A stretch of DNA of 38,607 bases. It comes from Gammaproteobacteria bacterium GWE2_37_16 (GTDB lineage: Bacteria; Pseudomonadota; Gammaproteobacteria; UBA9339). The DNA lies in the NCBI GenBank assembly GCA_001801285.1, contig MGXG01000005.1:1-38607 (forward strand). The letters run 5' to 3'. The number at the start of each line of letters is the position of its first letter. Position 1 is the first letter of the stretch. Under the pieces are notes generated by a model. It had not been told where the DNA came from. It worked only from the letters and a program-made list of their open reading frames with translations, and ran no database searches. The position numbers were made by a program, and so were the translations under genes. This document shows positions 2,991 through 26,626 of this stretch, in pieces.

Positions 2991-4312
2991 GCAACTTCCT
3001 CCATAAAAATCCGTCCTCTTTGCTCAAAATTTTCAAACATATCCATACTGGCGCAAGCAGGAGAAAGCAAAACAACGTCTTTGGCTTGCGCAGCTTGATG
3101 GGCTTTTTGCACTGCATCATGCATTGATTCCGCCATAATAATCTCACAATAACCCTGCAAAGCGGCAGCAATTTTCGCGGCATCACGTCCAATTAAAATT
3201 ATTGTCCGCACATATTTTTTTACTACCTCCTGTAAAACTCCAAAATCGGCACCCTTGCCTATGCCGCCTGCAATAAGAACAATTTTTCCGGAAATTTCCG
3301 CACCCAAACCAGAAATTGCCGCTTGCGTAGCACCAACATTCGTTCCTTTGGAATCATTATAATAATCAATATCATCTAATCTGCGTACCCACTGGCAGCG
3401 ATGCGGCAAACCGCCAAAATTACGCAAAGTTTCCAACATCGCTTCCAAGGGAAATTGCAAAGCTGTTCCCAAAGCCAAAGCCGCCAAAGCATTGGCAATT
3501 TGATGCCGACCTTTGATTTTCAATTCAATACCGGCAATAAGCTTGCTTTCGCCATAGACTAAATAACCATCGCGATAACCAAAATTACAAACCTCAGGAA
3601 TATCTAGCCCAAAACTAATTACATGAGCGCCTAAATTAAGACCGGTATAACTCTGTGGATCATCACGGTTAATAATAGCGTGTTTTACACCACGATAAAT
3701 CAATTGCTTTGCCTTGATATACGCCGCCAAATTCGCATAACGATCCATGTGATCGGGTGTAACATTTAAAACCACAGCTACAAACGGTTTTAAAGAATAT
3801 GTCGTTTCTAATTGAAAACTCGATAATTCCAAAACATATAAATCCTGCTCCTGATCTTTTAATAAATCTAACGCCGGCATGCCTAGATTACCGCCAACTT
3901 GCACCCTAAGTCCGGCGGCTTTTGCCATTTCGCCAACCAAAGTTGTCACCGTACTTTTACCATTCGATCCAGTAATAGCAACAATTGGCGCTTTAGCTTT
4001 TCTCGCAAATAATTCGATATCGCCAATCACAGAAATACCGCGTTTTATTTGCGCAACAATGGCAGGTTCTTGTAGCGAAATACCTGGGCTAAGAATTATC
4101 TCACTAGCTTTATTTAACAAATCCTCATCAAAACGACCTAAAACAAGAGGTATTTGTGGAAAGTTTTGACGTAATTCATCTAAACCTGGCGGATTTTCGC
4201 GACTATCAACAACTGCAATATTGCAATCCTGTTTTGCCAAATAGCGCACGCAAGACAAACCCGACTTACCAAGACCCACAATAACAACCAAACCATTTAA
4301 GGGACAACGCAT
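2978..4312 (-). CDS. murD: UDP-N-acetylmuramoylalanine--D-glutamate ligase
   Basis: 444 aa. N-terminal Rossmann VIVGLGKSGLS, Mur-ligase P-loop ITGSNGKSTV, dcw synteny. Confidence 0.95.
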   Translation of the reverse strand: MRCPLNGLVVIVGLGKSGLSCVRYLAKQDCNIAVVDSRENPPGLDELRQNFPQIPLVLGRFDEDLLNKASEIILSPGISLQEPAIVAQIKRGISVIGDIELFARKAKAPIVAITGSNGKSTVTTLVGEMAKAAGLRVQVGGNLGMPALDLLKDQEQDLYVLELSSFQLETTYSLKPFVAVVLNVTPDHMDRYANLAAYIKAKQLIYRGVKHAIINRDDPQSYTGLNLGAHVISFGLDIPEVCNFGYRDGYLVYGESKLIAGIELKIKGRHQIANALAALALGTALQFPLEAMLETLRNFGGLPHRCQWVRRLDDIDYYNDSKGTNVGATQAAISGLGAEISGKIVLIAGGIGKGADFGVLQEVVKKYVRTIILIGRDAAKIAAALQGYCEIIMAESMHDAVQKAHQAAQAKDVVLLSPACASMDMFENFEQRGRIFMEEVACLR

Positions 4313-16210: not shown

Positions 16211-19200
16211 TTACAAATTCTCCGCCATAAGCTCAGCTTGTTTCAATACATTTTCAGTCGCCAATAATTGCATATCTGGCGGATAACCGTATTTATTTAA
16301 AATCCTTTTTACATCGCGGCGCAGTCTTGCCCGAACGCTTTCTTTAAGCGTCCAGTCAAGAGTTGCATTTCCTTCAATACTCTTAAATACCTCAATAGCA
16401 ATAACAGCTAATTGCTTATCTCCCAACACGTCTTTTGCACTTTTGTTGTTGGCAAGTGCATCGTAAAAAGCCAATTCATCTTCGCGTAAATTCAGCTCTT
16501 CTCCGCGTTTATCTGATGTCCGTATGTCTTTTGCAAGCCTGATTAGCTCCTCAATTACTTGAGCGGCAGTAATTAAGTTATTTAGATATTTCTTAATTGC
16601 ATTCCCTAGCATTTCAGAAAATTTCTTACTTTGAATAAGATTTTTTCTTGTTCTGATTTTGATCTCATCATTCAAAATCTTTTTTAAAAGTTCCAAAGCA
16701 AGATTTTTTCGCGGCATGTGTTTAATTTCTTCCAAAAACTCGTCCGATAAAATTGAAATATCTGGTTTTTTAATTCCAGCCGCATCAAAAATATCAATAA
16801 TACCTTCGGAAACAACCGCTTTGTCTACAATTTACCTAATTGCCGTTTCAATTTCAGTGTCAGACTTCCCAGATCCAACCGGCTCAAATTTAACCAGTCG
16901 CGCTTTTATCGCCTGAAAAAATCCAACTTCATCTTTAATTGCCATAGCCTTTAGATGCGGGACAGATAATGCAAAAGCTTGTAACAATAAACTCACTTGT
17001 TTAGTAAACCTGTTCTTGCCATCATCTAAACTTAAAATATGTTCTTGCGCTTCAAGTATGATAGTGAGTTTTTGGCGTGTATCAGCGCCAAAATATTTCC
17101 TATAAGCAAAACCACTAAACATTTGCTCTACAATTTCAAAATTTTCTAGCATTTTCGCAACCGCTTCTTCCTGAAGCTCGGCAGGATCACCTTTTCCGCC
17201 ACTGGCGGTATATGTTGCAAGTGCTGTTTTTAGATCCGAAGCAATGCCAATATAATCAACAATCAATCCACCTGGTTTATCTCTAAAAACACGATTCACG
17301 CGCGCGATTGCCTGCATGAGATTATGGCTGCGCATTGCTTTATCTATGTACATCGTATGCAAACACGGCACATCAAAACCCGTGAGCCACATATCGCGCA
17401 CGATAACAAGTTTCAAAGGATCAGCAATATCTTTAAATCTCTCACCAAGAGACTTTCTGTTTTTCTTGGTCGTACTATGAATTTGCCAATTTTCAGGATC
17501 GGAGGAAGACGAAGTCATAACAACTTTAATTGCCCCTTTTTTCAAATCCTGATCATGCCAATCAGGACAGATTTTTATAATTTCCTCGTACAATTCAGCG
17601 GCAATTCTGCGACTCATGCAAACAATCATTCCCTTGCCGTCTAAAACTTCGCGGCGTTTTTCAAAATGATCGACAAGATCCGCAGCAATAATTTTCAGTC
17701 TGTCTCTGTGCCCAACAATCGCTTCAAGTTGCGCCCATTTTGCTTTAGCCTTTTCTTTGGCAGTTGATTCTTCGCCTTCAGTGATTGCTTCAACTTCTTC
17801 ATCCAATTTTGCGACTTCTTCGGGTTTCAAATGAACTTTAGCTAAACGCGATTCATAGAAAATTTTCACTGTAGCACCATCTTCAATCGCCTGAGCTATA
17901 TCGTAGACATCAATATAGTCACCAAAAACAGCAGGAGTTGATACATCTTCATTTTCAATCGGTGTGCCGGTAAAGCCAATAAATGAGGCATTCGGCAAAG
18001 CATCACGTAAATATTTGGCAAAACCGTATCGGGTTAAAATTTCGCCGCCTTTTTCTTGTGTTTTAGCGCTAAAACCATATTGACTGCGATGCGCCTCATC
18101 AGCCATGACAATAATATTTTTTCTTTCCGATAATAAATCAAAATTATTAGCACCATCTTCTGGAAAAAATTTTTGCATTGTTGTAAAGACAATGCCGCCA
18201 CCAGCAACTTTTAAAAGCTTTTTTAAATCGCTTCTACTTTTTGCCTGCACTGGATCTTGGCGTAAAAGTTGTTTGCAATTGGCAAAAGTATCAAAAAGTT
18301 GGTCATCCAGATCATTGCGATCAGTAATCACAACAACCGTTGGGTTATTGAGTTCTAAAACAGTTTTCCCTGTATAAAAAACCATCGAAAGTGATTTACC
18401 ACTGCCTTGTGTGTGCCAAACTACGCCAGCTTTTCTGTCACCATTTTCGCTTGATGCTGCAAGAGTTTTTACTAACGCCTTATTGACAGCATAATATTGA
18501 TGATAAGCGGCAATTTTCTTGATGGTAATAACAGTAGCTAAATTGGTTTTGGCGTCTTCGGTTTTGCTTTTTTCAAATACGACAAAATGACAAATCAGAT
18601 CCAGCAAGGTTTCTTTTTTGAGCATTCCTTTGATAAGTGTTTCTATTTGAGGAACTGTGGTTTTGTCTTCTTTCAATCCATCAATTGATTTCCAGGCAAG
18701 AAAGCGCGAAATATCCGAAGATATTGTCCCCGTCTTCGCATCCAACCCATCGGACGCAACTAAAATACTGTTGTAATAAAAAAGTGATGGAATTGCATTT
18801 TTATAATTTTGTAATTGGGTAAAAGCTTTTTGCACCGTAGCATTTTCATCTGTCGGATTTTTAAGCTCGATTACAACAAGCGGCAAGCCATTTACAAACA
18901 AAACTACATCGGGTCTTTTTGTGTTGTTATTTTCAATGACTGTAAATTGATTGCATGCTAAAAATTCGTTATTACTCGCATTTTCAAAATCAACTAAACG
19001 TACTTTGTCGCCCTTGATTCCATCAACGCCCATTACCTCAACCTCAATGCCTTCCGTCAGCATGCGGTGAAAAGCGTCATTATTGTCAATTAAATTTTGA
19101 CTCGGTAGATTTAAAATTTGGCGTAAAGCCTGATCTTTGGCTTCTTCGGGAATATTGGGATTTAGATCATCAATGGCATGTTTTAAACGATTTTTTAAAA

Positions 19201-19321
19201 CCACTTCACCAAGATTCAACCGCTCCGATTCCTGCTCTTCTGGTGACAAATATTGCCACCCCTGATTTTGTAAAAGCTCAATAACGAATTCTTCAATTGT
19301 CGATTCAAATATGCGGGTCAT
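16211..19321 (-). pseudogene. hsdR: Type I restriction enzyme R subunit, interrupted by a single in-frame TAA (16832..16834)
   Basis: 829-aa ORF with nuclease motif [16 protein letters not shown] and helicase motifs TQGSGKS and MADEAHRSQ. The same frame continues through the TAA: ...EIETAIR*IVDKAVVSEGIIDIFDAAGIKKPDISILSDEFLEEIKHMPRK... This runs into the 174-aa ORF, which is the HsdR C-terminal (DUF3387-like) region. Confidence 0.85.
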
Positions 19322-19351: not shown

Positions 19352-20006
19352 TCAACTACTACAAATTAAACAATTTATTTCTTCAACAAGAAAATGAATA
19401 CTTGTCGATGGATTGCCGCTACTATCCAGCATTTTGCACCAGTTGATTTCTTTATATTGTTGAGGCACAAGATATTTAGCGTTTTTTATTGCTTGATTCT
19501 GAAATGGCAGCAATGGTTGAAATACTTTCTTATTTTTTTCAAAATTACCCAACTTATATTTTTTAAAAACTTGCTGGATTTTTTTTCTCAAGATTCTTTC
19601 TTGGAATTGGAGAAGTTGGTTTTTCGAGGTGCATAAAAATCCAAAGTTCAAAACATTCGTTTATATAGGCAATTTTAATATTATTTTCGTGAGCATTTTC
19701 TATTGCTTTTAACAATTTTTCTGGTTGATTTTCATAAAAAGCATCAACATCAAAAACGCACCAAATCTGATCCCCATCTTCTTCACAAATCTCTTGTTTC
19801 CCCAACTTATCTTTTTCTTTCCAAGCGATAACTTTTTTAATTAGCTCCCATGGATCCCAACAAACTGCTTTCTTAGGTATCAACAATGCAGTTTTAAGAT
19901 GGTTTTTGAATTCCTGAAAATATTCTATTTCCGCTCTTTCAGTATGCGCCCAAACGAAAATTTTTGGATGTGTTGGACGATGATTTGTGCCTCGATAATT
20001 TGTCAT
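19352..20006 (-). pseudogene. rloB: RloB-like (TOPRIM-related) protein, frameshifted in an A8 tract (19579..19586)
   Basis: The 147-aa ORF has RloB features (KIFVWAHTERAEIEYF, WCVFDVDAF, INECFELWIFMHLE). The overlapping 99-aa ORF in another frame carries the family C-terminus (..KKIQQVFKKYKLGNFEKN...AIKNAKYL...GNPSTSIHFLVEEI). Removing one A joins them into ~217 aa. Confidence 0.7.
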
Positions 20007-21280
20007 ACTTGCTTGGAAAATTTTAAATTTTCAAAATCGGCAATATACGGTAAAGCCTTATACCTACCTTCTAAATATCTTTTAGCAAAATTTACGCCCT
20101 TTCTTTCGGAAATATCAGCTAATGAAAATAATTCAGTCGTTCCCTTTTCATCTCTATCCATAAAATAAATTTCATCTCTGCGCAGATAATCTTCGTCCAA
20201 GAGTGAAACAGCATGGGTTGTAAAAATAAATTGAGCGTTATTAGGGTTTTTTTCTTTAGAATTAAAAATTGAAACCAAATATTGGCACAAAACCGGGTGT
20301 AAATTCGCCTCAAGTTCGTCAATAAATAAAATTTTTCCGTTTTCCAGAGCATCAATAATAGGTGCTGAAAGTGCAAACATCTGCTGCGTTCCATCTGACT
20401 CTTCTGTAAAAAAATTCAAAGGAATGCTCGCTATTTCTTTTCCGTGCTTGTCGTATTTTTTATGAAAAAAAATCAAACTATGCTCAGCAATTTTGGAGTC
20501 TTCTTTAAAGAATAATTCCTTAAACTTATCAGGGATATTTTTAATCTCTTTGGCGGAAATTATTTTTTTACTGATCTTTATATCTGCGACCCCAAAATCC
20601 GCCTTAACAATGAAATCCTTAGTTTTTTCAGCCATACTGGAATTATTTAAGAATTGATCTATTGTATAGTTTAGCGTGTTAGCTCTTTCTGCCCCAGATA
20701 TTAAGCCTGTTTTCTGAATTAATTGGATTGTTTTTTTTGAGATTGGCTGATCGTAACTAGCAAGAAGCGTCAAAAATAAAACTCTTTCCGTTGTTTTCTT
20801 TTTTAAATCTCCCGATGCTTCTGAAAAGTAATTTTTATTATGCTTGATTTCCTGCTTCTTTCTTGTGAATAAAATTTTGTTTCCTTTTTTTTGTTTCAAC
20901 CATTCTGCTGTAATACTTTTTTTATCTATTTCAAATCCATAACTAAAAATATCTTCATCTAATAAAAAAGTCATTTCAAACCGTGACGATTGGTTTTCCG
21001 TATCTTCACTCAATTTAAAAAATTCATTAGGCAAATCTACTTGAGTATTACTACGTAGAAGAGATTCTAAAATCATCATGCGAAAAACTGCAAAAGCTTT
21101 AAAAATATTACTTTTTCCAGAAGCATTAGGTCCATAAATTGCTGCACATTTTAGCAACGAAACATTACCGCAATTAAAAACTGCATCCGATTTCATCGCA
21201 TCATCGCTTGTCGCCTGAAGATCAAGAACAATTTCTTCTTTAATGGAACGAAAATTTTTGACTTTGAAGTTTAGTAGCAT
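20003..21280 (-). CDS. AAA/ABC-type ATPase (AAA_21/AAA_15-like), partner of RloB
   Basis: MLLNFKVKNFRSIKEE start, Walker A GPNASGKSN, Walker B LFIDELEANLHP, FTTHA. ATGA overlap with rloB. The track start at 21358 is a TTG and gives a hydrophobic 26-aa extension, so I prefer ATG 21280. Confidence 0.8.
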   Translation of the reverse strand: MLLNFKVKNFRSIKEEIVLDLQATSDDAMKSDAVFNCGNVSLLKCAAIYGPNASGKSNIFKAFAVFRMMILESLLRSNTQVDLPNEFFKLSEDTENQSSRFEMTFLLDEDIFSYGFEIDKKSITAEWLKQKKGNKILFTRKKQEIKHNKNYFSEASGDLKKKTTERVLFLTLLASYDQPISKKTIQLIQKTGLISGAERANTLNYTIDQFLNNSSMAEKTKDFIVKADFGVADIKISKKIISAKEIKNIPDKFKELFFKEDSKIAEHSLIFFHKKYDKHGKEIASIPLNFFTEESDGTQQMFALSAPIIDALENGKILFIDELEANLHPVLCQYLVSIFNSKEKNPNNAQFIFTTHAVSLLDEDYLRRDEIYFMDRDEKGTTELFSLADISERKGVNFAKRYLEGRYKALPYIADFENLKFSKQV

Positions 21281-21329
21281 GGAAATATTTTTAATCCTTA
21301 ATTGAAGATTGGTAACGATCAGAATGTGA

Positions 21330-21358
21330 AATATAACAAGAAAATTGCCAAAAATCAA
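21330..21358 (-). promoter_or_regulatory. candidate sigma70 promoter for the ATPase-rloB(-hsdR) unit
   Basis: On the minus strand: TTGATT (21358-21353), 17-nt spacer, TATATT (21335-21330), about 50 nt upstream of ATG 21280. Confidence 0.35.
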
Positions 21359-21438
21359 TGCTTTTTAACAAAATCTTGCAAATATCGGTTGTTTTTGGAT
21401 ATTAAATCCTAAAATGCGCAACATAAAAAAATTATCAC

Positions 21439-21782
21439 GCTCTTTCAGAGCTTAATATTTCTGGGGGCTGCTTTCCCAGTCCCAGGTCCCAACCAAACCC
21501 CATGGTTCCTGTCGCAACTTCGTTGCTAAGTCACCCTGGGCTATAGTTATTATCACTACGTTGTAGTTTTTGTTCAAGCAGCTACGAAGTAGCAGCAATA
21601 ACCTATAGCCCAGTGGCGAGTTGGAAAAGAAAAAACATGTTTTTTCCCAACAAGCGCCAAAAACAAGGAGTTTTTGGCTGGCTTTTCATGTGAAACAGGA
21701 AGTGCAACAGGAAAAGGGAAACTACGCAGTAGTAACGTAACCCTGGGTTAATACCCCAAGTTTTCTGAGCTCTGAAAGAGCG
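21439..21782. other. 344-nt GC-enriched nested inverted-repeat element (candidate structured ncRNA or MITE-like element) inside the defence island
   Basis: Five colinear nested helices: 21439-21453/21768-21782 (15/15), 21462-21468/21754-21760, 21482-21487/21742-21747, 21507-21522/21700-21714, 21537-21547/21604-21614 (11/11). Also a 9-bp hairpin at 21657-21679 and the palindrome A6CATGT6 at 21631-21646. No credible ORF. Confidence 0.55.
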
Positions 21783-21860
21783 AAATAAAAAATGTTGTAC
21801 GTAAAAAATAATGTTTTTTGGATAAAAATTGCGAATATTGGGTATTTTTTGCAATCCATC

Positions 21861-24086
21861 CTAAATTGATGCTTTTAGTATAGTAAAATGCTCCGGAAAT
21901 ACGTTTTCCATCATTTCCAATAAATACTTAACATTTTTTTGTGTTTCCATCACCAATGATGGATCAAAACCTTTTCCTGTAATATGCGATTGGTCATTTG
22001 TAAATTTATAAATTGCAGTTTTTTTATTCTCATCAAAATCTAAACTCTTTAATTTTTCATAAATTTTATTGTTATTGGGAACTCTAAACATTAAAAATGT
22101 TTCCAAAACCTTTCTGGCGACATTTGGGATATGATAAATTTTCGCGATCGTTCCATCTGACTCACATTCAAATAAAAGCTTACACAAGTAATGATATTCA
22201 CTTTCATGATTTACTAATAATGAATCTAGTTTTTTAATTGTCGCCACTCTTTCATCAGTATCTATATCTATTTTATTGTATATCATAAAATATGGCTGCT
22301 TGTTTTTCTTATCTCTATTAAAAAAATTCAGCCAATTTAGTAATAGTCTTAAAAATTCAAAATTATGAGTAAATAAAAATACTTGTTTTGCGTTCGTAAC
22401 ACTATTTTTGAGAAAGGCAAACGCTTGAAAAAGTGAATTTGAATCTAAACTTGAAACTGGATCATCAATAACAATAATTCCATCCTTGATGTCAAAATTT
22501 TGGTCTTTTAAATGAACTACAAAATAAACAAAAGCAATCGCTGTCTTTTCTCCTTCGCTCAAGTTTTTTGCAACTTTTCCATTTCTTTTAATTACATAAC
22601 CACCACTTGGCGATACTTCAAAAATAATTTCTTTTCTACCAAGAAAAATTTCCAAATTTCTATTTAAATCTGCACACCCCTTATGTTCCGATGATATTAT
22701 CGCCTTATTCTCAATAATTCGCTGTTTTAATTTTGGTATACTGGCTGTTTGTTCATCCCCACTATTTAGCTTTTTTATTTCTATATCACAATCATTAATA
22801 GTATTTTTTATTTCTCTCACCTCATCAAATATTTCACTTATATAATGATTCTCTAGTTTTTTAAGCGCTTCTTCTTTTCGTTCCTGAAAGTTAGCCGTCT
22901 TCTTATTATGACTTTGAATTGTTTTATTTATATCCATCATACTTTTTTCAAATTCATTATTGGTAACAACTTCAAATTCTAAATTAACATGCTTCATGGT
23001 TTTATTTTTTTTAGCTTCTAATATCTTGATTAAATCAAAAATATGTTCTAATAGATTTGCTTTATTGCTACTAAATAGCTCACATCTTTGTGTATATTCT
23101 TGCTGAAATTCTGTATAAAAATTTGCTTTATCTATTATACATAACGACTCGATAATTTTGTAAATTTCCTTTAACTGTAATATGTTTATATCTAGTGATT
23201 TTTTTAGCTTTTGGTCTTCTTCATTAAAATAATTCATTAACTCTTGTATTCTTTCTTCTGATAAATGCTGATTACAAAATTCACATTTTTTTGCAGTATG
23301 CCGTAAATGCAAAGCAAGACCAGATTCAACCCATTGCGAAATATCAATATTATTTTTCAATCTTTCAATTACTAAAGATTCAACTATTTGCAAACATAAT
23401 TCTTTACTTTTTTGAGTGATTAAATTTAGTTTTTGAGACAAATCAGGTAAAATCATCTCATCTATTGTTGGTTTTTCCTCCTGCTTTAAATCAATAAGAT
23501 ATTTACTTACATCATGTTCACCTAAAAGTTCTTTTTTTAAAAGCAAACGAAATGCTCTTTCTGCTTCTGGTTTTCTATAGTTTCTCGATAATTCTCCCTT
23601 TATATTTGTTCCAATAATTTTTGCAACATCCGTGAATTTTCTTCCTTTTTCTGCTTCTTTTCTTGCTTTTAATTCTTCTTGCTCTTTCTTCCTATCCTGT
23701 GATTCATTTAAAGAATTTTCATCCTTTATTATTTGCTCCAAAATAACTTTATTTTCCTCCCCTAAAATTAAAATTGGTTTTGCTTTTGATCCTATAATTT
23801 CAATATGATTTGTAATATAGTCTTGATTAAAAACCCTTACTTTTTTATTAAAGACTTGGTTGTTCTTGAAACTTCCTGTTTCCGATTCTATTTCGTATTC
23901 TAAGCTAGGAAAGTCGTGCAACAATCCCTTTTCTAAAGCAGAAAATAATTTGGTAAGTGTCGTTTTTCCTGAACCATTCCATCCATAAAAAAGATTGTAC
24001 TGTTTAAAATCAGGTAAATCTTGGTTATCCCATTTATAGTCCGAAAAAATACCAAGATTATTTATTTTTATAATTTTTTTGATCAT
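21861..24086 (-). CDS. rloC: RloC-type anticodon nuclease (ABC ATPase with coiled-coil/zinc-hook insertion and C-terminal PrrC-like nuclease domain)
   Basis: 741 aa. Walker A GWNGSGKTT, long Lys/Glu-rich coiled coil, and a CxxC hook CEFC (nt 23274..23285). LSEGEKT signature, Walker B IIVIDDPVSSLD and FLFTHN are also present. The C-terminal R-x3-E...H pattern is NVARKVLETF ... TNDQSHITG. It occupies the position between hsdS and hsdR, as prrC does. Confidence 0.8.
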   Translation of the reverse strand: MIKKIIKINNLGIFSDYKWDNQDLPDFKQYNLFYGWNGSGKTTLTKLFSALEKGLLHDFPSLEYEIESETGSFKNNQVFNKKVRVFNQDYITNHIEIIGSKAKPILILGEENKVILEQIIKDENSLNESQDRKKEQEELKARKEAEKGRKFTDVAKIIGTNIKGELSRNYRKPEAERAFRLLLKKELLGEHDVSKYLIDLKQEEKPTIDEMILPDLSQKLNLITQKSKELCLQIVESLVIERLKNNIDISQWVESGLALHLRHTAKKCEFCNQHLSEERIQELMNYFNEEDQKLKKSLDINILQLKEIYKIIESLCIIDKANFYTEFQQEYTQRCELFSSNKANLLEHIFDLIKILEAKKNKTMKHVNLEFEVVTNNEFEKSMMDINKTIQSHNKKTANFQERKEEALKKLENHYISEIFDEVREIKNTINDCDIEIKKLNSGDEQTASIPKLKQRIIENKAIISSEHKGCADLNRNLEIFLGRKEIIFEVSPSGGYVIKRNGKVAKNLSEGEKTAIAFVYFVVHLKDQNFDIKDGIIVIDDPVSSLDSNSLFQAFAFLKNSVTNAKQVFLFTHNFEFLRLLLNWLNFFNRDKKNKQPYFMIYNKIDIDTDERVATIKKLDSLLVNHESEYHYLCKLLFECESDGTIAKIYHIPNVARKVLETFLMFRVPNNNKIYEKLKSLDFDENKKTAIYKFTNDQSHITGKGFDPSLVMETQKNVKYLLEMMENVFPEHFTILKASI

Positions 24087-24099
24087 TTTTAATCAGCTT

Positions 24100-25566
24100 T
24101 TATGAATTAGTAATCATTCTAACTTTCACCTCACCATTCATCAGCTTCGGCAAAAGTACATCGCGAAGATTGGAAATGGTTTGAATTTGGGAACTATTGT
24201 TAAAAATTTTCTGATCAATTGGATTTATCGTTTTTTCAAAATCATCAATAATTACAGAACATGGAATTATTACTTCAATATTTAAAAAACTATCTTTATT
24301 AATTGAACCAAAAATTGTTCCTTCTGTTTCAAAATTTTCAAAAACTTCTTTTAGAGGTTTTATTTTATAAAGTGCATAAGATTTATATTTACTTCTAACT
24401 GCTCCCAATCCTCTACCAATACAACATTGTTCAAACGCAACATTTATATCTCCTACTGGGGCACGAACGCTTACTAATGTATCAAATTTTTCCGCTATTC
24501 TTTTTGGCTCTGTAGTAAAAAGACGAGTTTTTGGGAATCTTTCTTGAAAATCTGTTCGCCCCTGAAAAAAAATCATTCCTTCTCCTTGTTCATTGTAACT
24601 TTTGCCGTCTGGAGATTGTCCCATTATAATTTCAAACTCTTCTCCCAACTTTCCAATCTTCCACCCCTCTGGAATCTCGCCAAGCTCTGAATCAATCATT
24701 TTCCCAGTTGCGCCGGGAAAATTAAAATTCACAAACCATTCTTTAAAAACCGCCTGCGCGGTAGCTTCGAGGGTTTTATTTTGTTCGCGTAGAAGTTCGA
24801 TTTTATCATCTAAAGAGGATAAGACAGCGGCAATTGCATGTTGTTCTGGGAGCGATGGTATATACCATTTTGTATTTATCAAAAAATTCCAATCAGCTCT
24901 TGGCATATGAGTTCCTGTGCTAGCTCCCATTGATTTATCAATGAACACAGGATTAGCTACAAAGTAAAATAAAAATTTCTGATCATTATTTTCTCTTGCC
25001 TTAATTACCCAAATGTCAGTTGAACATACCCCGTCAAATTTTGCTAGCCAAACTTTTCTAAAATAAGGTCTTAACTTTCCAAAAAGTATATCCCCAGTTT
25101 TAAAATAAAATTTATTACTTTCAAGTTTGTTAGAACAGCCAAAACCATTTATTGTAAGCTCTTCTTGATTGATATGTTCAAGACCAATATATTTTTGCTC
25201 TTCATCCCCAGATTTCCATTGTAACTTTAAAATCTCCGCCACATCCCCCAACTTCACCTCTTCCCACCCCCGCAAATAAAAAATCTTCCCATGTTTATCA
25301 ATCTGGTCTTTAAATTCAGTGGTATTAATATCGTGATAGTTGACTACATCAAAAAAATACGGTAACGGCAATTCTTCTAATTCGCCTTTTACTTGCGCTA
25401 AAAGACCAAAATTGATATCGCCTTTTAATGCTAAATCGATATCGGATGCGGGTTGAAAAGTGTTTATGGCACGCGAGCCAAAAACTAGCACTGTGTGAAT
25501 TGCTGGGTATTTGGCAAAAACCGACTGTATTTGCTGTATTTCCTGATCGTTCAAGCCGAATTTCAT
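24100..25566 (-). CDS. hsdS: Type I R-M specificity subunit HsdS with N-terminal MNT-type nucleotidyltransferase domain (approx. nt 25273..25566)
   Basis: 488 aa. Residues 1-98 carry the minimal-NTase signature VFGSRAINTFQPASDIDLAL ... FFDVVNY. From residue ~100 the usual HsdS begins (GWEEVKLGDVAEI), with two target-recognition domains separated by a conserved helix (LPEQHAIAAVLSSLDDKIELLREQNKTLE) and the terminal helix (NLRDVLLPKLMNGEV). Confidence 0.85.
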   Translation of the reverse strand: MKFGLNDQEIQQIQSVFAKYPAIHTVLVFGSRAINTFQPASDIDLALKGDINFGLLAQVKGELEELPLPYFFDVVNYHDINTTEFKDQIDKHGKIFYLRGWEEVKLGDVAEILKLQWKSGDEEQKYIGLEHINQEELTINGFGCSNKLESNKFYFKTGDILFGKLRPYFRKVWLAKFDGVCSTDIWVIKARENNDQKFLFYFVANPVFIDKSMGASTGTHMPRADWNFLINTKWYIPSLPEQHAIAAVLSSLDDKIELLREQNKTLEATAQAVFKEWFVNFNFPGATGKMIDSELGEIPEGWKIGKLGEEFEIIMGQSPDGKSYNEQGEGMIFFQGRTDFQERFPKTRLFTTEPKRIAEKFDTLVSVRAPVGDINVAFEQCCIGRGLGAVRSKYKSYALYKIKPLKEVFENFETEGTIFGSINKDSFLNIEVIIPCSVIIDDFEKTINPIDQKIFNNSSQIQTISNLRDVLLPKLMNGEVKVRMITNS

Positions 25567-25579
25567 TTATTTTCCCCTG

Positions 25580-26626
25580 CTATTTTTTCTTTCTTATTCC
25601 TAACATTTTTTTCACTTCTTTATCAAAATCCGACTCAAGCATATGATCTTGAATAACTCGATATTTTTCAAATTCGCCTAGTGCTAGCGCCTCTGCAACA
25701 TCGTGGCTTATCTTACCAGCATTATGCAGAATTTCTCGTTCATTAAATTTGAGAAACGCATCAAGTTTTTGAACCCAATCTTTCATATACATAATAATCC
25801 CACGTTTAGCCTGCATTTCCGCATAATCAAGATACATGGTTACAATTCTATTTAGATGGTCAAGTTCATTTTCGTTTAAATAATTTTTTGCAATTATCAC
25901 ATCTGATTCGCGAATTTTACCTTTGGGTGCATTTTTCCATGTGGTAAGTCCCATGTTAGGCTTTGTGCTGCCTGTTCTTTCATAGACGATTTCCGCCGCA
26001 GTTTTGCCAGTGATAGCAAAATGAAGTTTGTTCTGCACTGTCGCATAAAACCGTTTGGTAACATCATTTTTAGAGTCATAATCTGCGCTGCACTGCGCAT
26101 AAATATCAGTAATTTTTTGATATAGCCTTCGTTCACTGGAGCGAATATCGCGAATACGGGCAAGTTGTTCTTCGAAGTAATCTTTGCCGAAAATATAATT
26201 TGGATCCTTCAGACGCTCATCATTCATCGTATATCCTTTGATAATATACTCATGTAGTCGCTCAGTTGCCCAAATTCGAAAAAGTGTTGCCTGTCTACTA
26301 TTAACGCGATAGCCAACAGAAATAATTGCGTCCAGGTTGTAAAATTCAATATTTCGCCTTACTTGTCTTTCGCCTTCATTTTGAACTTGTGCAAAATTTG
26401 CACGAGTTGCTGCAGCACCCAATTCCCCTAATTCATAAATATTTTTAAGATGCTTAGTAATTACTGATCTATCGACGCCAAACAGTTGTGCAATTTTATC
26501 TTGAGTAAGCCAGATATTCTCATCTTTGAGAAAAATCTCTACTTTTACATTACCATCTGGTGTGTTATAGAGAATTACTTCAGTAAATGAATTATTTGGA
26601 ACAATCTTTTTAGTGTTTTTTTTCAT
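25580..26626 (-). CDS. rhuM: RhuM-family protein
   Basis: 348 aa. ...[46 protein letters not shown]... is the characteristic RhuM core. ATGA overlap with the hsdM stop. Confidence 0.8.

Follow-up and report, generated by a model that had tools for sequence, protein, structure and literature searches.

A tail-to-tail doublet of hairpin-rich units in a gammaproteobacterial defence island, probably a decayed REPIN/BIME-type repeat

Introduction

REPINs and BIMEs, which are doublets of REP sequences, form REPtrons together with the RAYT (TnpA-REP) genes (PMC3116915, PMC3337134, PMC6006769), and REP sequences can dampen transcription and make mRNA more stable (PMC3733652). Repeats of the TIRtron type have been reported from Acidobacteria, Planctomycetes and Bacteroidetes (PMC3733652, PMC6006769), and Y1 proteins of subclass 1.2 are listed in a published survey without an associated REP (PMC6006769). 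A further relative, the Acido-Lenti-1 motif (Rfam RF01687), was originally filed as a likely RNA with no function assigned to it (PMC2864571); it is built from an 8-bp hairpin with a 4-nt loop (P1), a 12-nt linker and a 5-bp hairpin with a UUC loop (P2).

The window analysed here, i.e. the whole stretch of 38,607 nucleotides from Gammaproteobacteria bacterium GWE2_37_16 (contig MGXG01000005.1), carries an element within a defence island which we regard as a decayed, non-autonomous doublet of the REPIN/BIME type, with a probability of roughly 0.72. Judged by IleRS, the nearest relatives that bear a name are Gammaproteobacteria, with an identity of about 53%.

The element and its surroundings

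According to the ORF and Pfam calls, a spacer of 580 nt (21281-21860) separates rloC, the upstream gene (AAA_13; 21861-24086, minus strand), from the downstream gene, which encodes an AAA_21 ATPase (20003-21280, minus strand). The initial annotation had described this gap as enriched in G+C, and rightly so: the content is 0.41-0.43 across 21400-21800 against 0.25-0.34 in the DNA on either side. Within the spacer, the element (21432-21788) is made up of two units of several hairpins each, called arm B and arm A, which are inverted relative to each other and meet tail to tail; this description is based on a 21-nt inverted repeat, on its fold z-scores and on homologues in the loci L170, L049 and L095. 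An inverted-repeat search located its perfect 15/15 terminal inverted repeat CGCTCTTTCAGAGCT, with the left arm at 21438-21452 (plus strand) and the right arm at 21768-21782 (minus strand); this helix had been recognised before, with the left arm placed one base off. The repeat extends to 21 nt at 90% (21432-21452 / 21768-21788) and its 13-mer core occurs at two places only within the window, compared to 0.04 expected. The inner structures reported earlier are likewise present, several of them shifted by one base: an 11/11 helix (21536-21546 / 21603-21613), a helix at 91% (21506-21516 / 21703-21713), a 9-bp hairpin (21656-21678) and the 16-nt palindrome AAAAAACATGTTTTTT (21630-21645). Both strands of the element fold equally well, the minimum free energies being -136 kcal/mol (plus) and -145 kcal/mol (minus) with z-scores of -9.0 and -9.4, respectively. 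Its sole ORF is the TTG-initiated 83-mer already noted (21603-21854, minus strand), for which no Pfam match was obtained.

No second copy of the element was found within the 38.6-kb window, and no tRNA or tmRNA was detected. BLAST searches against phages and plasmids gave no match; in viral contigs the search for the paired-end pattern yielded nothing, the 15-mer alone giving 39 single matches and 0 paired ones. Strain variation was of no use for covariation: eight contigs carry the window's rloC, and the spacer is identical in all 8. Contig breaks in or near the element (L005-L008) were considered as a repeat signal and set aside, because they do not lie where contigs running into a repeat would be expected to break. 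An RT domain is absent from all annotated ORFs of the window, and a retron msr/msd, a DRT-type or another RT-linked ncRNA was therefore rejected.

Neither a short target-site duplication at the ends of the element nor a clean empty site was found; what is duplicated instead is a promoter block of about 80 nt, with one copy on each side of the element. The proximal copy (21329-21410, minus strand), consisting of TTGATT (21358-21353), a 17-nt spacer and TATATT (21335-21330), is kept in L170 and also in the element-free loci L174 and L173, in agreement with the previous statement that the ATPase unit is separately promoted. The distal copy of this ATPase promoter block (21783-21862, minus strand), identified by alignment, is degenerate and abuts arm A, and no promoter-like site was called in it.

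Arms and local hairpins

Arm B, the ATPase-proximal unit (21432-21567, plus strand), is composed of H1, H2, a P1 stem enclosing H3, a linker of about 12 nt and H4. The arm alignment assigns the same architecture with other hairpin sequences to arm A, the rloC-proximal unit (21581-21788, minus strand), which is interrupted by a 100-nt insertion; a short centre (21568-21580), defined by comparison with L170, lies between the two. One unit measures about 110 nt, and its P1 is a CCCAGG/CCTGGG stem around H3. H1 of arm B (GCTCT-TTC-AGAGC; 21439-21451, plus strand) is the motif common to repeat units flanking Y1 genes, where it represents the gene-proximal hairpin hp0. H1 of arm A (21769-21781, minus strand) accounts for the partial and best RF01687 match of the window, which spans 21769-21792 on the minus strand and model positions 22-45, and reaches 15.9 bits (E 0.45), below the gathering score of 37.

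H2 reads CTGGGGG..CCCAG in arm B (21461-21479, plus strand; arm alignment and single-arm fold) and TTGGGGT-ATTA-ACCCAG in arm A (21743-21759, minus strand; arm alignment). The covarying H3 is GCAAC-TTC-GTTGC in arm B (21514-21526, plus strand) and ACTAC-TGC-GTAGT in arm A (21721-21733, minus strand). The local hairpin H4, which in arm B (ACTAC-GTT-GTAGT; 21555-21567, plus strand) occupies the place of P2, the outermost small hairpin of the related three-hairpin units, has the sequence GCTAC-TTC-GTAGC in arm A (21581-21593, minus strand). The 3' half of the P1 stem together with the linker is represented by CACCCTGGGCTATAG in arm B (21532-21546, plus strand), which is kept in all arms and in the units of Planctomycetota, and, according to the arm alignment, by CACTGGGCTATAGG in arm A (21602-21615, minus strand).

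Single arms fold on their own, arm B alone into H1, H3 and H4, and the outer part of this arm is 100% identical to L170. Across the arms the local hairpins are 97% paired, compared to at most 55% in slid controls, and compensatory double changes are seen at six of the pairs that form H3 and H4. The long-range helices, unlike these local mini-hairpins, do not covary: arms A and B have lost their mutual complementarity at H2-H4, while each has kept its own hairpins. The one long nested hairpin proposed in the initial annotation holds as a fold far beyond that of shuffled sequences (0 of 100 as stable), whereas the conserved and covarying structures are local. It should also be noted that covariation cannot separate DNA hairpins from RNA hairpins.

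Two insertions distinguish the window from its closest relative L170. One is an 18-nt stretch in arm B (21486-21503, plus strand); the other is the 100-nt block in arm A (21617-21716), which contains both the palindrome and the 9-bp hairpin. These two features of the right arm are real, but belong to a block absent from L170 and without a homologue among the 178 loci or elsewhere in the window.

Homologues and presence among ATPase cassettes

Full-length homologues lie between GT9 glycosyltransferase genes in L049 and between EamA and asnA in L095; they are 80% identical to each other and situated in unrelated housekeeping contexts. A 245-nt version without the 100-nt block is found in L170, whose ATPase is 89% identical and which has a Trypsin_2 gene in place of rloC and Bro-N in place of rloB. 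The element is absent from the ATPase cassettes of L174 (86% identical ATPase, accompanied by RloB) and L173 (77%). A local duplication-inversion that happened once, or a chance palindrome belonging to no family, might be suspected from the single copy in the window and from the duplicated promoter block adjoining it; given the homologues at three other loci, the terminal motif in at least 119 genome stretches (see below) and the lack of any shuffle of comparable stability, such an origin is hardly credible.

The initial annotation had considered a structured ncRNA of the island acting as regulator, RNA antitoxin or decoy. A trans-acting RNA of this kind, whether it were to regulate the island, to serve as an antitoxin or to divert the nucleases RloC or RloB as a decoy, would be in line with the high G+C content and very stable fold within an AT-rich spacer, with the covarying hairpins and with the filing of the related Acido-Lenti-1 motif as likely RNA in the first instance (PMC2864571). 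A conserved association with rloC, the ATPase or rloB was, however, not found in L174, L173, L170, L049 and L095: the element is linked neither to rloC (Trypsin_2 in L170) nor to rloB (Bro-N), it is missing from the ATPase-RloB cassette of L174, and its homologues adjoin glycosyltransferase genes, EamA and asnA. It has no dedicated promoter, the distal promoter copy being degenerate and not called, and folds on either strand alike. No Rfam family matched in the window at the gathering threshold, and nothing meaningful appeared at E<=10; for RF01687, L170 and L095 gave no match at E<=0.05 and L049 none at E<=0.01. Matches of plant miRNA precursors on L049 and L095 were discarded, being below threshold and reflecting long hairpins only. 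The proposal of an island ncRNA consequently finds little place among these data, and we consider it very unlikely.

The copies of the window and of L170 are 98-100% identical (2 differences in 164 element bases), compared to 76-79% for flanks and third codon positions, and 100-nt and 18-nt indels separate these otherwise near-identical copies. Such identity is compatible with recent spread or homogenisation and also with a function under purifying selection. The element might accordingly be read as a functional structure in cis which the ATPase cassette has kept and which may have started out as a repeat that became domesticated. Acting as an RNA leader, as an insulator or terminator, or at the level of DNA structure, it would separate transcription of rloC from that of ATPase-rloB-hsdR or tune the latter unit. 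Besides the high identity, this reading is favoured by the unchanged placement of the element, which precedes the ATPase gene in like orientation in two type I R-M islands whose neighbouring genes differ, by the run of seven T that follows the closing stem on the operon strand and by the precedent of REP sequences in attenuation and mRNA stabilisation (PMC3733652). Against it, the T run is not kept in L049 or L095 and no terminator-like site was called on the operon strand; the ATPase cassettes that are 86% and 77% identical do without the element, insertions of 100 and 18 nt are tolerated, and homologues occur in unrelated housekeeping contexts. Moreover, rloB and hsdR are themselves disrupted in the window, hence the island is not under tight selection. 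On balance we judge a kept cis-acting structure to be unlikely, although an insulating role of the element before the ATPase unit, as suggested initially, is possible. Its more specific version is a doubtful one: selection in type I R-M islands would have retained the doublet in front of the AAA_21 ATPase gene as a domesticated repeat, serving at the DNA or RNA level as an insulator or switch that uncouples, or under certain conditions couples, transcription of rloC and of ATPase-rloB-hsdR. This would explain why only 2 of 164 positions differ while flanks and silent sites are 76-79% identical.

Repeat units and Y1 transposases

The terminal motif TTWCGCTCTTTCAGAGCT matched at least 119 genome stretches, compared to about 35 expected by chance in the whole collection according to our own estimate, which assumes uniform base composition. 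Among the matches listed, Bacteroidota, Planctomycetota, Acidobacteriota and Ignavibacteria prevail; the motif is often multicopy or arranged in tandem arrays, and several MAGs were matched on 3-5 contigs. It is part there of a three-hairpin unit, which is partly catalogued by Rfam as the orphan Acido-Lenti-1 motif and shows a simpler order than the arms described above, namely hp0, P1, linker and P2. Units in L048, L050, L056, L062, L075, L113 and L177 reach 37-56 bits with RF01687, i.e. at least the gathering score, and the RF01687 matches adjoin Y1 genes and fall in repeat clusters. A CRISPR-like or guide array was rejected, because the sequence between the hairpins is constant in the tandem arrays (L137, L080, L083, L062); the window holds a single doublet.

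The commonest Pfam family next to the motif is Y1_Tnp (6 of 150 ORFs). These Y1 proteins match ISHp608 TnpA and the IS200/IS605 model NF033573, on which they score 53-67 bits (cut-off 55); on the model of RAYT proper, NF047646, they remain at or below 33.8 bits against a cut-off of 80. Their signature DH[VIL]H / WQ / YI.NQ.EHH is that of subclass 1.2 (PMC6006769). In all ten cases examined, all from other genomes, repeat units flank the 150-aa Y1 gene (IS200/RayT-like, subclass 1.2) in inverted orientation, and four of these loci, which had been picked by protein similarity and length of contig only, all have inverted hp0-P1-P2 units on both sides. L176 and L178 are related genomes in which the Y1 gene is syntenic. 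The element of L049 shares its 28 terminal bases without change with the unit that adjoins the start codon of a Y1 gene in Ca. Scalindua rubra, and GTGATAATTTTTTTATG beside H1 of arm B (21422-21438, minus strand) seems, by direct comparison with L175-L178, to resemble the leader between hp0 and the ATG of Y1 genes. H1 is outermost in the element, compared to innermost (as hp0) around the Y1 genes. The 38.6-kb window itself contains no Y1 gene.

These associations also bear on a classical MITE, that is, a deletion derivative of an insertion sequence with a DDE transposase, moved via its terminal inverted repeats and leaving a short target-site duplication. The perfect 15-bp terminal inverted repeat, the small size, the lack of coding capacity and the variable presence are all reminiscent of such elements. 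The ends, however, lack a short flanking direct repeat, no DDE family is among the 25 families listed for the 150 motif-adjacent ORFs, in which Y1_Tnp is the commonest, and each 'terminal repeat' consists of about 110 nt of covarying, self-complementary hairpins, as is typical of recognition on single-stranded DNA. We therefore regard a MITE of this type as highly improbable. The MITE/PATE-like element of the initial annotation survives in its PATE/REPIN form, considering the dispersed multicopy motif and the flanked Y1 genes (10/10), and not as a DDE-type MITE with a short duplication.

Proposed origin and its meaning

Rather than an RNA of the island, the element is most likely a passenger copy from a dispersed, hairpin-rich family whose members move along with small tyrosine transposases of the IS200/RayT type. 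It consists of two inverted, tail-to-tail copies, representing subtypes A and B, of a hairpin-string unit of about 110 nt, whose family appears also to flank the genes of Y1 enzymes (HUH tyrosine, IS200/RayT-like, subclass 1.2) and to be scattered singly, in pairs and in arrays across several phyla. By analogy with the biochemistry of IS200/IS605 and RAYT, a Y1 enzyme acting in trans would recognise the folded hairpins on single-stranded DNA, cut at the hairpin foot and copy or move the unit. A passenger copy may then have become inserted on the -10 side of the promoter block of the ATPase, and the ATPase-rloB-hsdR unit would now be read from the second, intact copy of this block. Any effect on the island would be a by-product in cis, such as attenuated read-through from rloC or protection of the 3' end of rloC mRNA.

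For the defence island the outcome is deflationary: the structure most likely is selfish repeat DNA and should therefore not be counted as a defence component or an RNA antitoxin. As a by-product, the terminal hairpin ties the element to a very widespread three-hairpin unit flanking genes for 150-aa Y1 proteins of subclass 1.2. If this is true, it would offer an explanation at the DNA level for the orphan Rfam motif Acido-Lenti-1, with which the unit overlaps, and REP/RAYT-like systems would extend well beyond the Proteobacteria. It would also call for caution when annotating such repeats as sRNAs.

Comparison with known systems

Correia, RUP and ERIC MITEs resemble the element in being small, intergenic and RNA-foldable, with terminal inverted repeats and the ability to alter expression of neighbouring genes, but the element, unlike them, lacks a target-site duplication and is not linked to any DDE transposase. 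PATEs, which derive from IS200/IS605, resemble it in lacking autonomy, in carrying hairpins and in relying on a Y1 transposase that acts on single-stranded DNA; the ends of IS200/IS605 are, however, not inverted repeats of each other and carry their hairpins on one strand, whereas the ends of the element form a true inverted repeat. TIRtrons / TIRYT (PMC3733652), like TnpA-Y1 subclass 2.6 and class 3 with their 'atypical secondary structures' (PMC6006769), have in common with the present family that Y1 genes lie between long terminal inverted repeats which are self-complementary in part and whose copies make up moderately abundant families, occurring as dimers or clusters. Going by their description, they are set apart by the Y1 signature, which is YI.NQ.EHH (subclass 1.2) here as opposed to YIH[QN]NP in subclass 2.6 and YV..EQ in class 3, and in the units studied here no CnGA foot like that of class 3 was observed.

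The likeness to Acido-Lenti-1 lies in H1 and the bases 5' of it, which match the P2 half of the model, and in the linker of about 12 nt. H1, H3 and H4 all have 5-bp stems, the loop being TTC in 3 of the 6 copies of the window and either TGC or GTT in the remaining ones. In contrast to the tetraloop of the model, the CCCAGG/CCTGGG stem of the window encloses about 30 nt including the extra hairpin H3, and the model therefore does not fit as a whole. Judging from where it lies in the genomes compared, the Acido-Lenti-1 unit itself acts here like repeat DNA that accompanies Y1 genes.

REPtrons differ from the present family in several respects. Their REPs are single palindromes of 20-40 nt, whereas the units described here contain 3-4 hairpins within about 95-120 nt; they are associated with a Y1 protein of 150 aa that is IS200-like and belongs to subclass 1.2, for which no REP is listed (PMC6006769); and in place of the 5' GT[AG]G tetranucleotide of REPs the hairpin foot is TTAYWWC-like, H1 being preceded on its 5' side by TTATTAC in L049, L095 and L158, and by either TTATCAC or TTATTTC in the window. 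The likeness to REPINs and BIMEs lies in the following: two palindromic units are present in inverted orientation, can form one long hairpin and lack coding capacity; units of the family are dispersed singly, as doublets or as clusters; different subtypes are combined in one doublet, in the manner of Y and Z REPs in E. coli; and, in other genomes, inverted units of the family lie on both sides of a small Y1 HUH gene of low copy number.

Structure of the element

The 580-nt spacer between rloC (AAA_13; 21861-24086) and the AAA_21 ATPase gene (20003-21280) does contain the GC-rich inverted repeat described in the initial annotation, with a G+C content of 0.41-0.43 compared to 0.25-0.34 in the sequence either side. 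Its ends form a perfect 15-bp terminal inverted repeat, CGCTCTTTCAGAGCT, at 21438-21452 and 21768-21782, which can be extended to 21 nt with 90% complementarity. The 13-nt core of this repeat has two sites in the 38.6-kb window, both at the element ends (0.04 expected by chance), and the fold of the element on either strand surpasses those of dinucleotide-preserving shuffles by about 9 sd. Inner helices, a 9-bp hairpin and a 16-nt palindrome had also been described; all were found, several of them one base away from the positions first assigned. The 83-aa TTG ORF has no Pfam match.

Alignment with L170, another locus carrying a version of the element, revealed two window-specific insertions, which are absent from L170: an 18-nt block (21486-21503) and a 100-nt block nested in arm A (21617-21716). 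The latter holds the palindrome and the 9-bp hairpin, includes a tandem 12-mer (GTGAAACAGGAA / GTGCAACAGGAA) and has no homologue in any locus fetched. Minus both insertions, what remains is a pair of inverted units flanking a 13-nt centre: arm B on the + strand (21432-21567) and arm A on the - strand (21788-21581). From the outside inward, the order in each arm is H1 (GCTCT-TTC-AGAGC), H2, a CCCAGG...CCTGGG stem around H3, a linker of about 12 nt (CTATAG.TATTA) and H4, whereby H1, H3 and H4 each have a 5-bp stem and a 3-nt loop, TTC in most. A regular expression for this 5-bp/3-nt hairpin shape matches four times in the whole window, both strands included, and all four matches lie within the element.

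Conservation of local hairpins

We aligned eight arms (A and B of the window and of L170, left and right arms of the homologous elements L049 and L095). Pairing in the four local hairpins reaches 97% across them, as against at most 55% in slid-partner controls, and compensatory double changes occur at six pairs of H3 and H4 (H3 variants: ACCAC/GTGGT, ACTGC/GCAGT, GCAAC/GTTGC, ACTAC/GTAGT). H2, H3 and H4 differ between arm A and arm B, both in the window and in L170, so that long-range A:B pairing is broken there, yet each arm retains its own hairpins; isolated arms fold into H1, H3 and H4 with z values of -2.5 to -4.5 (DNA parameters). The helices of the nested five-helix hairpin originally proposed exist, but it is the string of local mini-hairpins which covaries and is constrained, not the nested fold. 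This covariation is equally compatible with DNA or RNA hairpins. H1 variants of the form GTTCT..AGAGC (L170 3587-3610, L095 2297-2320) show a T-G wobble on the TTC-loop strand, corresponding to an A-C mismatch on the opposite strand, which with n=2 may give a weak hint as to which strand folds.

Distribution of the element

Scanning metagenome contigs for the two terminal hairpins, appropriately spaced, yielded three further loci. Full-length homologues lie in L049 (1573-1932), adjoining GT9 glycosyltransferase genes, and in L095 (2294-2646), between an EamA transporter gene and asnA; they are 80% identical to each other, with near-perfect arms of about 105 nt each. The plant miRNA-precursor models MIR5048 and MIR7533 of Rfam match the long hairpins of both (L049 1607-1907, L095 2325-2617) with strong E-values, yet under the gathering scores, and could mislead automated annotation of such hairpins.

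Homologues of the ATPase protein led to three informative cassettes. In L170 the ATPase (89% identical) belongs to a different type I R-M locus, with a Trypsin_2 gene in place of rloC and a Bro-N gene in place of rloB, and a 245-nt version of the element occupies the same position. The element is absent from the cassettes L174 (ATPase 86%, intact rloB) and L173 (ATPase 77%). Its presence thus varies between related cassettes and its gene contexts are unrelated. Because L170 swaps both genes and L174 has rloB without the element, the latter is tied to neither rloC nor rloB, and L174 and L173 show it to be dispensable for the ATPase cassette. Together with the homologues in unrelated contexts, this argues against the suggestion of an island-specific ncRNA. 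The suggestion of a separately promoted ATPase unit fared better: a promoter-like block, TTGATT-17-TATATT, is kept in the window and in L170, L174 and L173, also where the element is missing, and the unit is predicted to run from this promoter of its own.

No short target-site duplication flanks the element; what lies on each side is a copy of the promoter block, about 80 nt long (proximal copy 21329-21410, distal copy 21783-21862). The distal copy is degenerate and stops at its -10 position, where arm A takes over. L170 likewise has the block on both sides (3510-3578 and 3866-3934). Over 164 element bases, window and L170 differ at 2, whereas identity outside the element amounts to 79% in the distal flank, 76% in the proximal flank and 79% at third codon positions. 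Recent spread or homogenisation of the repeat would explain this disparity, and would suit the large indels between the two copies as well. Less probably, purifying selection for a cis function of the element may underlie it, and the main alternative to a repeat origin builds on this.

The defence island

The operon reads, on the - strand, hsdM, rhuM, a nucleotidyltransferase-hsdS fusion, rloC, the element, ATPase, rloB and hsdR; its neighbours are tsaD and cvpA, within a stretch of housekeeping genes that includes mur genes, ileS and cysS. Among named sequences, the nearest relatives of the IleRS are gammaproteobacterial, at only about 53% identity. The window contains no reverse transcriptase and no tRNA gene. 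Eight contigs with this rloC, all from Rifle groundwater metagenomes, have an identical spacer. An in-frame TAA interrupts hsdR at 16832-16834 (ORFs 16832-19321 and 16211-16735), beyond which the frame stays in phase into the remaining T1RH-like C-terminal domain, so that a nonsense mutation seems to have inactivated the restriction subunit. Two overlapping ORFs make up rloB (19352-20006), one of 147 aa covering Pfam positions 2-131 and one of 99 aa covering 128-195; the homologue in L174 is intact (218 aa). A frameshift is likely. In the region 24100-25566 and 25580-26626, the specificity subunit carries a fused N-terminal Polbeta-type nucleotidyltransferase domain and a RhuM-family gene lies between hsdM and hsdS; L170 encodes the nucleotidyltransferase partner (NTase_sub_bind) as a separate gene.

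Acido-Lenti-1 and the three-hairpin units

Rfam returned no match in the element at gathering thresholds and, at E<=10, a single informative one: a partial match to Acido-Lenti-1 (RF01687; 15.9 bits, threshold 37) aligning the right terminal hairpin with the 3' half of this motif, for which the literature consulted gives no function. A second scan, of genomes, with the 18-mer TTWCGCTCTTTCAGAGCT gave at least 119 stretches versus about 35 expected by chance over the whole collection if uniform base composition is presumed. Among the matches listed, the main groups are Bacteroidota, Planctomycetota, Acidobacteriota, Ignavibacteria and Verrucomicrobiota / Lentisphaerota, and several MAGs have matches on 3-5 different contigs. 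These genomes share a simpler unit, in which the hairpins hp0 and P1 are followed by a 12-nt linker ending in ..ATTTC and the hairpin P2. The stems vary by compensation (GCTCT/AGAGC, GCCCT/AGGGC, GCCCC/GGGGC, GCGCC/GGCGC, GCACT/AGTGC), and P1-linker-P2 is a true Acido-Lenti-1 match (37-56 bits) in L048, L050, L056, L062, L075, L113, L055, L125 and L177. Besides single units, there are convergent and divergent pairs as well as tandem arrays, the latter repeating every 38, 41, 63, about 90 or about 400 nt. Arrays with the 5-bp/TTC hairpin (L137 6520-6815; L080 1686-2020 and 3734-3870; L083 6040-6300; L062 6400-7640) have constant inter-hairpin sequence, without variable spacers, and are therefore not CRISPR-like.

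Y1 transposase genes

The commonest Pfam family among 150 ORFs adjoining the motif is PF01797 (Y1_Tnp; six ORFs). The six proteins (129-153 aa) match ISHp608 TnpA (PDB), four exceed the cut-off of the IS200/IS605 model NF033573, and matches to the RAYT model NF047646 are weak. They bear DH[VIL]H, WQ and YI.NQ.EHH, the signature of TnpA-Y1 subclass 1.2 (Quentin et al. 2018, PMC6006769), described as low-copy, occurring in Bacteroidetes and Cyanobacteria, without IS200-type ends and without REP (PMC6006769).

All six genes lie between or beside inverted units with hp0 adjoining the gene, and RF01687 matches directly adjoin several. Inverted hp0-P1-P2 units were also present on both sides of four out of four further Y1 homologues, chosen by protein similarity and contig size alone. 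Y1 genes of 150 aa that bear the subclass 1.2 signature and are flanked by such units, with Acido-Lenti-1 as the P1-P2 part, were located in L050 (1706-2344), L177 (1478-2044), L158 (5005-5580), L064 (1557-2057) and, around 1400-2100, in L175, L176 and L178. The Y1 site is syntenic in L176 and L178, from different assemblies (M48 peptidase, Y1, acyltransferase, gatC), suggesting vertical inheritance, as with RAYTs. In L168 (2930-3000) the Y1 gene between the units is reduced to its first codons (ATGTACCAATCG...); this is apparently a deletion derivative of a Y1-bearing element. The window itself contains no Y1 transposase; L048, a contig from the same metagenome encoding the Y1 protein P0241, appears to derive from an Ignavibacteria-like organism, not the window's host.

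The L049 element begins with 28 bases, TTTTATTACGCTCTTTCAGAGCTTAAAA, that recur without change in the unit abutting the Y1 start codon of Ca. Scalindua rubra (L158) as well as in units from two more Planctomycetota MAGs. Besides H1, window-type arms and these units have in common an ACCCAGG...CCCTGGGCT stem, the linker of about 12 nt and a terminal 5-bp mini-hairpin; the window-type arm thus seems an elaborated version of the Y1-flanking unit, with H2 presumably added and H3 inserted into the P1 loop. The sequence directly outside arm B, GTGATAATTTTTTTATG (21438-21422, - strand), resembles the hp0-to-ATG leader of Y1 genes, e.g. GTGATAGTA-ATG in L175, although this may be resemblance only.

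Proposed origin and comparison with known repeats

The element is one of a dispersed family of hairpin repeats, whose units are linked to Y1 genes in other genomes. We consider it, with a probability of roughly 0.7, a decaying non-autonomous doublet of such Y1-linked repeats. By analogy with the established reactions of TnpA from IS200/IS605 and of TnpA-REP from E. coli (PMC6006769, PMC3733652), a Y1 HUH enzyme would recognise the folded hairpins on single-stranded DNA and cut at the hairpin foot, whereby units would be amplified or moved; the window copy would since have decayed through the nested 100-nt insertion, the 18-nt insertion and divergence of its arms. Of the earlier proposals, the MITE/PATE-like element is favoured, as a Y1-associated repeat, by the dispersed homologues and the Y1-flanking units. 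Its influence on the island is probably incidental, though it may impede rloC read-through or shield the 3' end of the rloC mRNA.

The units around Y1 genes have hp0 innermost, unlike the tail-to-tail pairs of the window, L049 and L095, where it is outermost. Such convergent pairs also adjoin the Y1 gene in L050 and L048, and for REPs head-to-head as well as tail-to-tail dimers are on record (PMC3733652). The element is real but ordinary in kind: most likely it joins the Y1-associated repeats of the REP/REPIN/TIRtron class and is no part of the defence system. The more interesting lead is that Acido-Lenti-1 and its companion hairpin hp0 may represent the repeats that flank subclass 1.2 Y1 genes in inverted orientation, a subclass which the 2018 survey lists without REP (PMC6006769).
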